Part shown: in pieces, positions 55,379-56,178 of the stretch
Layout: every line of letters begins with the position of its first letter
Numbering within the stretch: position 1 is the stretch's first letter
NCBI GenBank assembly: GCA_030529225.1
Contig: JAUMXH010000005.1
Coordinates: forward strand, 38,790-102,789
Length of the DNA stretch: 64,000 nucleotides
Direction: 5' to 3'
Source of the DNA: Bacillota bacterium
Lineage (GTDB): Bacteria > Bacillota > Clostridia > Peptostreptococcales > Acidaminobacteraceae
Program-made: the position numbers and the translations under genes
The notes under the pieces: model-generated
The model's input: only the letters and a program-made list of their open reading frames with translations
Database searches by the model: none
What the model was told of the DNA's origin: nothing

Positions 55379-55516
55379 ATTTAAAAGTGTTAAGGGGGAT
55401 GAGAACGAAGTCACGAGCGTCATATAAAAGTTGCCGGCGGCAAGTTTTATAGCGAGTGGTTCGAGCGAAGCGAGAAAGGTTTTGCGAAGCAAAACGGAAT
55501 CCCTACTGGCACGCCA
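55379..55516 (+). repeat. tRNA-linked ~138-nt element (family member A) ending in a 20-nt copy of the tRNA-Arg(TCT) 3' end
   Basis: Starts right after the CCA of tRNA-Arg(TCT). About 80% identical to the units at 55872–56150. Contains an A-tract/hairpin/T-tract (agttgccggcggcaagtttta) and a second hairpin (ggttttgcgaagcaaaacgg). Ends with gaatccctactggcacgcca, identical to the last 20 nt of the tRNA. Confidence 0.75.
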
Positions 55517-55528
55517 AATTTATTATAT

Positions 55529-55605
55529 GGCGGCTGTCGTCAAGCGGTTAAGACATAGGATTGTGGCTCCTATATGCGTGGGTTCGAATCCCATCAGCCG
55601 CCCCA
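55529..55605 (+). tRNA. tRNA-His (anticodon GTG)
   Basis: Extra 5' G(-1), acceptor gcggctg/cagccgc, anticodon loop ttgtggc, encoded CCA. Confidence 0.85.
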
Positions 55606-55631
55606 TTTCAAACAACAGCCACAAACAATAT

Positions 55632-55707
55632 GACCCGTTAGCTCAGTCGGTAGAGCATCTGACTTTTAATCAGGGGGTCCCGCGTTCGAGTCGCGGACGG
55701 GTCACCA
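55632..55707 (+). tRNA. tRNA-Lys (anticodon TTT)
   Basis: Acceptor gacccgt/acgggtc, anticodon loop cttttaa, encoded CCA. Confidence 0.85.
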
Positions 55708-55712
55708 ACTAA

Positions 55713-55739
55713 AAACTTTCGGAAGAAAGTTTTTTTTAT
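55713..55739 (+). terminator. intrinsic terminator after tRNA-Lys
   Basis: aaactttc–ggaa–gaaagttt hairpin followed by tttttttt. Confidence 0.6.
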
Positions 55740-55775
55740 TTTCGCAAATCGACTATAGGATATTTTTCTATTTTG

Positions 55776-55784
55776 TGGTAGAAT
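55776..55784 (+). promoter_or_regulatory. extended -10 promoter element (TGgTAGAAT) upstream of tRNA-Arg(TCG)
   Basis: TGn plus TAGAAT ending 10 nt before the tRNA 5' end; no clear -35. Confidence 0.4.
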
Positions 55785-55794
55785 AACAAAGCAC

Positions 55795-55871
55795 GCACCA
55801 TTAGCTCAATTGGATAGAGCAACGGACTTCGAATCCGTAGGCTGGGGGTTCGAGTCCCTCATGGTGCGCCA
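55795..55871 (+). tRNA. tRNA-Arg (anticodon TCG)
   Basis: Acceptor gcaccat/atggtgc, anticodon loop cttcgaa, encoded CCA. Confidence 0.8.
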
Positions 55872-56178
55872 TTTTTATGCGCAAAAGAGGGACGAGAACG
55901 GCAGTCACGAGCGTAAAGAAAAACTTGCCGGGGGCAAGTTTTATAGCGAGTGCTTCGAGCTAAGGCGAGAAGGGTTTTGCGAAGCAAAACGGAGTCCCTC
56001 ATGGTGGCCATTTTTATGCGCAAAAGAGGGACGAGAACGGCAGTCACGAGCGTAAAGAAAAACTTGCCGGGGGCAAGTTTTATAGCGAGTGCTTCGAGCT
56101 AAGGCGAGAAGGGTTTTGCGAAGCAAAACGGAGTCCCTCATGGTGCGCCATTTTTATGCGCAAAAGAGGGACGAGAAC
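55872..56178 (+). repeat. tandem array (2.2 copies of 139/140 nt) of tRNA-linked element family member B; each full unit ends in a 19–20-nt copy of the tRNA-Arg(TCG) 3' end
   Basis: Units at 55872–56010 and 56011–56150 are identical apart from a 1-nt deletion in the first terminal copy (gagtccctcatggtg-gcca versus ...tgcgcca). A third copy is truncated after 28 nt at 56178, exactly where the convergent gene's stop codon begins. Each unit has an aaaaacttgccgggggcaagtttta terminator-like hairpin and a ggttttgcgaagcaaaacgg hairpin. Confidence 0.85.

Follow-up and report, generated by a model that had tools for sequence, protein, structure and literature searches.

Repeat units behind two tRNA-Arg genes of a Bacillota bacterium share the architecture of Escherichia coli RtT RNA

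Introduction

In Escherichia coli, the tyrT operon contains 178-bp repeats, each of which, as inspection of the locus shows, includes the 3' end of tRNA-Tyr. rtT is the RNA encoded by one repeat unit (PMC3318445, in a statement citing Bösl & Kersten 1991), and the corresponding Rfam family is RF00391 (RtT RNA). Members of the RtT family have already been reported from γ-proteobacteria at genes for tRNA-Tyr, tRNA-Asn and tRNA-Lys, and both in E. coli (PMC3318445) and in Actinobacillus (PMC4986893) release as a separate RNA is known. In Actinobacillus pleuropneumoniae, Arrc20 and Arrc21 adjoin tRNA-Asn and tRNA-Lys genes, give consistent Northern blot signals and are conserved across the Pasteurellaceae (PMC4986893), so that this type of element is not bound to one tRNA. 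An old proposal, as it is quoted in PMC4986893, links RtT to the stringent response, and a 2024 preprint states that the mode of action of rtT is unknown (10.1101/2024.07.17.603846). Here we describe repeat units of about 130-140 nt that directly follow two tRNA-Arg genes in a 64,000-nucleotide stretch of a Bacillota bacterium genome (GCA_030529225.1, contig JAUMXH010000005.1, positions 38,790 to 102,789), referred to below as the window. It is likely that these units are structured RNA modules built into the tRNA transcript and that they are of the same kind as E. coli RtT RNA.

tRNA-operon spacers such as the leuZ 3' external transcribed spacer also yield stable RNA through processing of a tRNA precursor. 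The leuZ spacer is a sponge for small RNAs (sRNAs) and works by pairing with them; it differs from the window units in lacking both a tRNA-end copy and a tRNA-like closing helix. Direct repeats of tRNA 3' ends also flank many genomic islands, and the attachment (att) sites of elements that target tRNA genes with a crossover in the T loop likewise show a direct repeat that runs from the T loop to the CCA.

Results

Repeat units follow both tRNA-Arg genes of one tRNA cluster

The units and their substructures are located in the window as follows. P1 to P4 denote the helices of the predicted fold, and R1 is a covariance model of the window-clade units with these four helices.

Window, + strand: tRNA cluster in the order Pro, Gly, Arg(TCT), His, Lys, Arg(TCG) (ARAGORN)
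55302-55378, +: tRNA-Arg(TCT) (ARAGORN; Rfam tRNA model, 70.7 bits), whose last 20 nt are the source of both the direct and the inverted copy in unit A
55379-55516, +: unit A, 138 nt, a 118-nt core plus a 20-mer (R1 135.6 bits; predicted fold -42.5 kcal/mol, z -3.1)
55387-55406, +: degenerate inverted copy GTGTTAAGGGGGAT and GAGAAC box of unit A, 5' strand of the closing helix P1
55410-55458, +: arm P2 of unit A, base GUCAC-GA-GCG ... AGC-GA-GUG with a tandem G·A loop
55426-55448, +: AT-rich/GC tip hairpin of P2 in unit A
55459-55477, +: arm P3 of unit A, a UUC-GA-GC / GC-GA-GAA hairpin with a tandem G·A loop; this module also aligns in E. coli RtT
55479-55495, +: arm P4 of unit A, a GUUUUGC-GAA-GCAAAAC hairpin
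55497-55516, +: exact direct copy of the last 20 nt of tRNA-Arg(TCT), 3' strand of P1 plus a free GCCA
55795-55871, +: tRNA-Arg(TCG) (ARAGORN), preceded by a hairpin with a T-run that lies after tRNA-Lys
55872-56010, +: unit B1, 139 nt (R1 132.1 bits)
55992-56010, +: tRNA-end copy of unit B1, with one base deleted
56011-56150, +: unit B2, 140 nt (R1 140.4 bits; predicted fold -50.4 kcal/mol, z -3.4)
56017-56038, +: inverted copy and box of unit B2
56043-56091, 56092-56111 and 56113-56129, +: arms P2, P3 and P4 of unit B2
56131-56150, +: exact 20-nt tRNA-end copy of unit B2
56151-56178, +: partial third unit, 28 nt, comprising only linker, inverted copy and GAGAAC and identical to the start of a full unit
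55410-55477, 55904-55972 and 56043-56111: regions with tandem G·A loops

Unit A lies inside the Pro-Gly-Arg-His-Lys operon between tRNA-Arg(TCT) and tRNA-His, which begins 13 nt after it and is followed by tRNA-Lys. No promoter-like site was found between unit A and tRNA-His. The second locus is a tandem array behind tRNA-Arg(TCG), for which Tandem Repeats Finder reports a period of 139, 2.3 copies and 98% matches.

Much of this layout had been recognised in a sequence-only reading of the window, and its measurements largely hold. The composition of the array (139, 140 and 28 nt, with a 1-nt deletion in the first tRNA-end copy) is confirmed by Tandem Repeats Finder and by the sequence itself. 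The cores of the two loci (118 and 120 nt), described there as about 80% identical, agree at 99 of 120 positions (82.5%). The hairpin GGTTTTGCGAAGCAAAACGGA and the motif GCAAGTTTTATAGCGAGTG reported as shared each occur three times in the window against an expectation of 0.01. As that reading also claimed, each locus carries an exact 20-nt copy of its own tRNA 3' end: the last 20 nt of tRNA-Arg(TCT), GAATCCCTACTGGCACGCCA, are found at 55359 and 55497 and those of tRNA-Arg(TCG), GAGTCCCTCATGGTGCGCCA, at 55852 and 56131, and neither recurs anywhere except downstream of its own tRNA. The 20-mer of unit A does exist, but it had been placed one base off its true position (55497-55516). The last base of the array is 56178 and the stop codon of a convergent 322-aa open reading frame (ORF) begins at 56179, in agreement with the claim that the array ends at this stop codon.

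Both ends of the units track the neighbouring tRNA

Besides the direct copy, each unit carries at its start an inverted copy of the 3' end of the neighbouring tRNA, a feature that had escaped the earlier reading together with the box that follows it. In the window clade, the inverted copy begins 8-15 nt past the CCA and spans the acceptor 3' strand and the T-stem 3' strand. It leads into a GAGAAC box, which does not vary and which can be aligned to the T-loop complement. The other tRNAs of the same cluster (Pro, Gly, His and Lys), used as controls, have no such inverted copy.

Relatives of the window were reached via orthologues of the flanking pncB and GGDEF genes. The tRNA cluster is kept in six related genomes, all uncultured, and the flanking proteins are 56-64% identical among relatives. 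Named distant homologues belong to Clostridia, for example Fusibacter and Acidaminobacteraceae, and the gene order of the window is typical of Firmicutes. Five more units follow Arg genes in these relatives (two in the locus designated L023 and one each in L025, L041 and L043), and a partial unit is present in L039. The ends of these units follow their own tRNAs. In L023, the tRNA sequence tcccttatggc and the inverted copy gccataaggga form a perfect 11-mer match. In L041, where the T stem of the tRNA differs (cctac; cctacatgg), the change is mirrored in the inverted copy (catgtagg) as well as in the 21-nt direct copy.

In the window, in its relatives and in E. coli, a unit shares the strand of the tRNA that it directly follows and closes with a copy of the last ~19-21 nt of that tRNA, including the CCA. 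A 5' segment complementary to this copy precedes a (G)AGAA(C) box. The exception is the L023 unit after Arg(TCT), designated L023A, which ends not in the Arg end but in a 13-nt fragment of the tRNA-His 3' end (aaatcccatcagc, 11436-11452). Judged by its sequence, L023A is chimeric or in decay. With the Arg end replaced by the His-like one, it is unable to close the helix, and this end shows that recombination occurs at the T-loop sequence that the tRNAs share. We also observed a second, degenerate copy of the tRNA-Arg(TCG) 3' end (tcctacatggtgtgc) in L039 (6226-6180, - strand), located 14 nt past the CCA of the unit there with no unit between.

The units adopt a common four-helix fold supported by covariation

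Read 5' to 3', a unit consists of an AU-rich linker of 8-10 nt behind the preceding CCA, the tRNA-complementary stretch, GAGAAC, three hairpins and the 19-21-nt tRNA-end copy ending in NCCA. RNAfold predicts the same four-helix fold for independent units on the + strand, with z-scores between -2.6 and -3.4 for complete units; the chimeric L023A (z -2.05) does not take this fold. The closing helix P1 is formed by the inverted copy and the terminal direct copy, leaves 2-4 nt of the NCCA free and encloses the hairpins P2, P3 and P4. The consensus of P2 is CAC-GA-GC / GC-GA-GUG at the base with a variable AT-rich tip, that of P3 is UUC-GA-GC / GC-GA-GAA and that of P4 is UUUUGC-GAA-GCAAAA. Across full units, the P1 duplex has energies of -12 to -21 kcal/mol. 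Compared with 300 shuffles per unit, an equally good duplex arose in 0, 3, 9, 18 and 33 cases for five of the six full units, including unit B2 (-21.3 kcal/mol, 0/300) and unit A (-14.7 kcal/mol, 3/300).

To assess covariation, eight units from six related genomes were analyzed. RNAalifold applied to a plain MAFFT alignment of the eight units recovered P2 and P4 unguided, with compensatory changes. After realignment of the units with R1, 92.4% of paired cells are standard pairs. Column shuffles give 80.7%, and sliding the partners by 1-3 columns gives 38-53%. Both sides have changed in 17 of 34 pairs as opposed to 6.5 in shuffles, and none of 500 shuffles reached the observed values for pairing or for both-side changes. 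Compensatory changes include G-C to A-U in P4, C-G to U-A in P3 and G-C to A-U in P2. P2 tips are wholly different between units and still paired, and a 13-nt insertion in P3 of L025 lengthens the hairpin. Among paired cells there are 20 G·U and 3 A·C, an excess which identifies the tRNA-sense strand as the folded strand. Taken together, the compensatory changes and the recurrence of the architecture in other lineages (see below) indicate that the fold is probably under selection.

Two of the three hairpins carry symmetric 5'-CGAG-3'/5'-CGAG-3' loops with tandem G·A pairs, and these two loops as well as a GCGAAGC mini-hairpin are conserved in every unit and also in E. coli RtT. Tandem G·A CGAG loops and GCGAAGC mini-hairpins are unusually stable both in DNA and in RNA. 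In view of their stability in DNA, a role of these motifs in single-stranded DNA is conceivable.

The architecture of the units agrees with that of RtT RNA

For comparison, we used the E. coli tyrT locus and the Rfam RtT model. Of the six copies of the 19-mer AATCCTTCCCCCACCACCA in the tyrT locus, two belong to the two tRNAs, one lies between these tRNAs and three follow tyrV, and RF00391 scores 133-137 bits on four E. coli units as a positive control. In the RtT consensus, the structured part opens with GgGaaGG, which repeats the T-stem and acceptor strand of tRNA-Tyr in inverted form. Next come AUGAGAAc, an interior with UCGAGCG...GCGAGA and GCGAAGC and, last, the tRNA-end copy, and the curated Rfam structure closes through pairing of GgGaaGG with CCuuCcC of that copy. 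The annotated rttR starts 8 nt past tyrV, and its last bases are precisely the CCA of the first copy, so that its 3' end is placed as in a tRNA.

E. coli RtT resembles the window units in several respects. Units directly follow a tRNA, be it within an operon (tyrT-tyrV) or arrayed in tandem behind the last tRNA. The final part of every unit repeats the tRNA 3' end up to and including the CCA (19 nt in E. coli). An inverted copy of the T-stem and acceptor 3' strand is followed by (A/C)UGAGAA(C), and the two ends pair. The interior contains a UCGAGCG...GCGAGA hairpin followed by a hairpin of 6-7 bp, and GCGAAGC motifs. RtT further has a variable copy number (1-10 RtT places per E. coli genome, median 3), and its mature RNA ends at the CCA. 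In one E. coli strain (L044, NZ_CP195449.1:138402-141516), the purU-tyrT-tyrV-RtT block is located on a 195-kb plasmid beside an IS4 transposase gene.

The two systems also differ. The window units are hosted by tRNA-Arg(TCT) and tRNA-Arg(TCG) in a Clostridia-like lineage, whereas the host of E. coli RtT is tRNA-Tyr in γ-proteobacteria. The linker between CCA and inverted copy measures 8-15 nt in the window clade and about 59 nt in E. coli RtT. The window units possess an additional long P2 arm and a different hairpin order, and their closing helix spans the whole acceptor strand, leaving 2-4 nt free instead of 9 nt in E. coli RtT. Arrc20 and Arrc21, which we compared by description alone, are detected by the Rfam RtT model while the window units are not. 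No counterpart of E. coli tpr, a small basic ORF in the repeat, was found in the window units.

The link in sequence is weak in both directions. R1, built from the window clade only, matches four E. coli units at 15.4-19.2 bits, and these matches fall on the P3-P4 module, consistent with a shared module of UCGAGCG-loop-GCGAGA and an adjacent hairpin. Remaining matches in those loci do not exceed 5.7 bits, except for the shared P4 hairpin in two metagenomic loci, L012 and L014 (16.5 bits). The latter contain a GC-rich unit after tRNA-Ser(TGA) that acts as an intermediate. Both the 21-nt P4 hairpin and GGGATGAGAACGAAGT are common to this unit and the window units, and the L014 interior is significantly similar to those of window-clade units (2, 12 and 34 of 1000 shuffles as good). 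The Rfam RtT model aligns to the L014 unit end to end, finishing at the CCA, with 18.5 bits and E=0.3. Based on the names of the homologues of a neighbouring GIY-YIG gene, the L012/L014 lineage is probably Verrucomicrobia.

Several observations weigh against the interpretation of the units as RtT-type RNA modules. The Rfam RtT model gives no match to the window units even at E<=10 (threshold 45 bits), and no other Rfam family matches them. The similarity between the interiors of window units and E. coli RtT is not significant in local alignments (42-162 of 1000 dinucleotide shuffles are as good), so that RtT and the units may have a common origin or may have converged. Covariation was measured on only eight units from closely related genomes, in an alignment fitted to the model. 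Nor can it tell whether the inverted copy pairs with the direct copy downstream or with the upstream tRNA, since these two possible partners share one sequence. Lastly, L023A is unable to form the closing helix. Since the Rfam model misses the units and the interior similarity is not significant, we assign no membership of RF00391; as judged by analogy, the units share the RtT architecture and can be classed as working like RtT. With this qualification, the architecture agrees with RtT on every point tested, and the sequence-only reading, which recognised no described repeat family here, is corrected by the tyrT repeats, RtT RNA and the published RtT RNAs at other tRNAs (PMC4986893).

Alternatively, the unit could be a signal acting in cis, either by pairing of the inverted copy with the upstream tRNA 3' end to control maturation or by termination of transcription at the P2 hairpin. 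The short distance between CCA and inverted copy in the window clade would allow a local hairpin, the inverted copy of L023A matches the upstream tRNA only and the P2 tip of unit A fits a terminator-like pattern. However, the E. coli inverted copy is far from the CCA and is paired with the downstream copy in the curated Rfam structure. Only unit A fits the intrinsic terminator pattern, its T-run lies within the stem and is not conserved in relatives, and the His and Lys tRNAs that follow unit A must still be transcribed. We consider a cis signal very unlikely. Of the structured small RNA or terminator cassette suggested in the sequence-only reading, the RNA part fits the evidence best, while the terminator part is unlikely for unit A.

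Units vary between loci and mark rearrangement junctions

Returning to the units as RtT-type RNA modules, their distribution among relatives is uneven. There is no unit after Arg(TCT) in L025, while L023, L043 and the window have one. The units do not group by tRNA or locus: similarity between the two L023 units is 93%, and the Arg(TCT) unit of L043 has its closest match in the unit after Arg(TCG) in L039.

The block containing the GGDEF gene, the tRNA cluster and the units (window 53649-56181) is inverted or differently placed in L025, L041 and L039 and is missing in L034. For L018, a contig of the same species, homology with the window stops at 56180. This point falls within the stop codon of the 322-aa gene, which reads TAA in the window and TAG in L018, and past it L018 continues with unrelated DNA that includes a DUF3825 gene. 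Two other contigs of the same species, L037 and L038, end inside tRNA-Pro. Because L018 homology ends at this point and the block moves among relatives, we interpret the 28-nt partial unit as a unit truncated at a rearrangement junction and not as a designed end. Where a tRNA cluster carries these repeats, it appears to be a hot spot for rearrangement.

Such instability would also be expected of functionless selfish repeat DNA that spreads by unequal crossing-over or gene conversion at tRNA 3' ends and whose fold is incidental. Tandem reiteration, the truncated copy at a rearrangement junction, the chimeric His-like end, the extra degenerate copies in L039 and the wide copy-number variation in E. 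coli are all in line with this explanation. It is nevertheless unlikely, as compensatory changes hold four helices across relatives whose flanking proteins are only 56-64% identical and the architecture recurs in γ-proteobacteria and in a Verrucomicrobia-like lineage.

A second copy of tRNA-His, split after the D arm by a ~128-nt AT-rich insert, is present in relatives and absent from the window. ARAGORN and Rfam make no call on the split copy. In L041, the insert sequence forms a plain spacer between tRNA-His and tRNA-Lys and upstream of His. The insert may represent another family of spacer elements in tRNA clusters, or it may be an unusual intervening sequence.

L023:11527-11745; L025:5727-5930; L043:~3945-4140: split tRNA-His copies
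L041:10121-10224 and 10361-10413, - strand: insert of the split tRNA-His as ordinary spacer

Searched collections of mobile DNA gave no copies of the unit

The direct repeat at each unit runs from the T loop to the CCA, as at many integration sites that target tRNAs, and the sequence-only reading had suggested an att-core footprint left by a miniature integrative element. According to this explanation, a non-autonomous element would insert at the T loop by means of a tyrosine or serine recombinase supplied in trans, with the 20-nt repeat as att core. The variable presence of units after Arg(TCT) and their failure to group by locus are compatible with insertion. No tyrosine or serine recombinase was found among the 30 window ORFs scanned, however, and the neighbourhoods in relatives consist of housekeeping genes. 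Pattern scans of viral contigs and blastn searches against plasmids and phages yielded only chance matches or nothing. Different from att sites, the window units come without integrase or cargo and combine a target-matched inverted copy, strand-specific G·U pairs and covarying internal helices, none of which is predicted by integration. The two tRNAs would each require their own att core, and the E. coli counterpart is a processed RNA. We regard an integrative element as very improbable.

The direct repeats of tRNA 3' ends that flank many islands could likewise suggest that the units are scars of larger excised or deleted islands sharing an arm, the second explanation put forward in the sequence-only reading. 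Eight copies from six genomes agree in length and content and have covarying helices, no coding remnant derived from an island is present and the same unit is tandemly repeated. The covariation effectively refutes island scars, for which we see next to no chance.

A scan of a collection of genome contigs with GCAAGTTTTATAGCGAGTG gave one chance match, in a coding region without a tRNA. Metagenome contigs scanned with the 21-nt hairpin yielded 16 loci, 14 of which represent an IS21-type insertion sequence, the others being L012 and L014. We rejected the IS21-type loci as relatives of the units, the hairpin alone being in common, and this exact 21-nt match is probably coincidental. The IS21-type element in L015 encodes a 538-aa transposase-like ORF and a 248-aa ATPase-like ORF, and the element breaks many metagenome contigs.

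L003-L011, L013, L015-L017 (e.g. L015:2133-2330): IS21-type loci, left end with the identical 21-nt hairpin GGTTTTGCGAAGCAAAACGGA followed by a GAGCGG-rich stretch

In L014, a GIY-YIG gene lies between tRNA-Ser and the unit. This gene was considered as part of an autonomous parent element and rejected because L012 represents the same locus without the gene. A GIY-YIG cassette after tRNA-Arg in L045 has neither a unit nor a tRNA-end copy, and the window contains no GIY-YIG homologue. The leader of the cassette, compared with loci L012 and L046, contains repeats of the tRNA-end junction. The GIY-YIG cassette looks like a free-standing homing-type cassette aimed at tRNA flanks and independent of the RtT-like unit. 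The 80-aa GIY-YIG nuclease genes form a family of 2,247 clusters, and source names point to Verrucomicrobia/Opitutaceae.

L014:254-790 (ORF 527-769): GIY-YIG cassette directly 3' of tRNA-Ser(TGA)
L045:2686-3243: GIY-YIG cassette directly 3' of tRNA-Arg(TCG)

Discussion

We classify the units as a divergent variant of the RtT-type RNA repeats of tRNA operons, in a new lineage and at new tRNAs. New in this locus are the covariation across lineages, the fact that both ends covary with the tRNA, the extra P2 arm and the failure of the Rfam model to detect the units.

As seen from folding and covariation, the paired ends of a unit are similar to the acceptor/T-arm stack of the cognate tRNA and leave an NCCA tail free. 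In the model we propose, because such a helix resembles the stack that tRNA-maturation enzymes read, the unit is likely excised from the tRNA transcript by the enzymes that mature the flanking tRNAs, which would turn the module into a stable tRNA-end mimic. Unequal recombination or slippage involving the tRNA end and its copies could lengthen and shorten the arrays. Unit interiors may be homogenised or exchanged between nearby loci, while the ends would stay matched to the local tRNA since the closing helix has to pair. Our preferred guess, in line with the old proposal of a stringent-response link, is that the mimic could be a decoy for, or a sensor of, factors recognising the acceptor ends of uncharged tRNAs.

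The same layout in a distant lineage at two tRNAs, ends that track the tRNA and compensated helices argue that the fold, and in particular its mimicry of the acceptor end of the cognate tRNA, is selected and does not simply arise from unstable repeats. Mutational analysis can be directed at the closing helix, at the GAGAAC box and at the tandem G·A loops. In practical terms, the current Rfam RtT model misses part of the family, and the units break assemblies, mark rearrangement junctions in tRNA clusters and may pass for integration scars. Tentatively, and with considerable doubt, RtT-like modules of γ-proteobacteria, Clostridia-like and Verrucomicrobia-like lineages might constitute one ancient superfamily of tRNA-acceptor-end mimics across phyla, with ends re-tailored to each tRNA and an interior that is mobile between loci. 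If so, they would act as decoys or sensors for readers of the acceptor/T arm and CCA of a specific uncharged tRNA, with stringent-response factors, tRNA-targeting toxins and processing enzymes as candidate readers. This would provide a testable function for an RNA unexplained since 1991.

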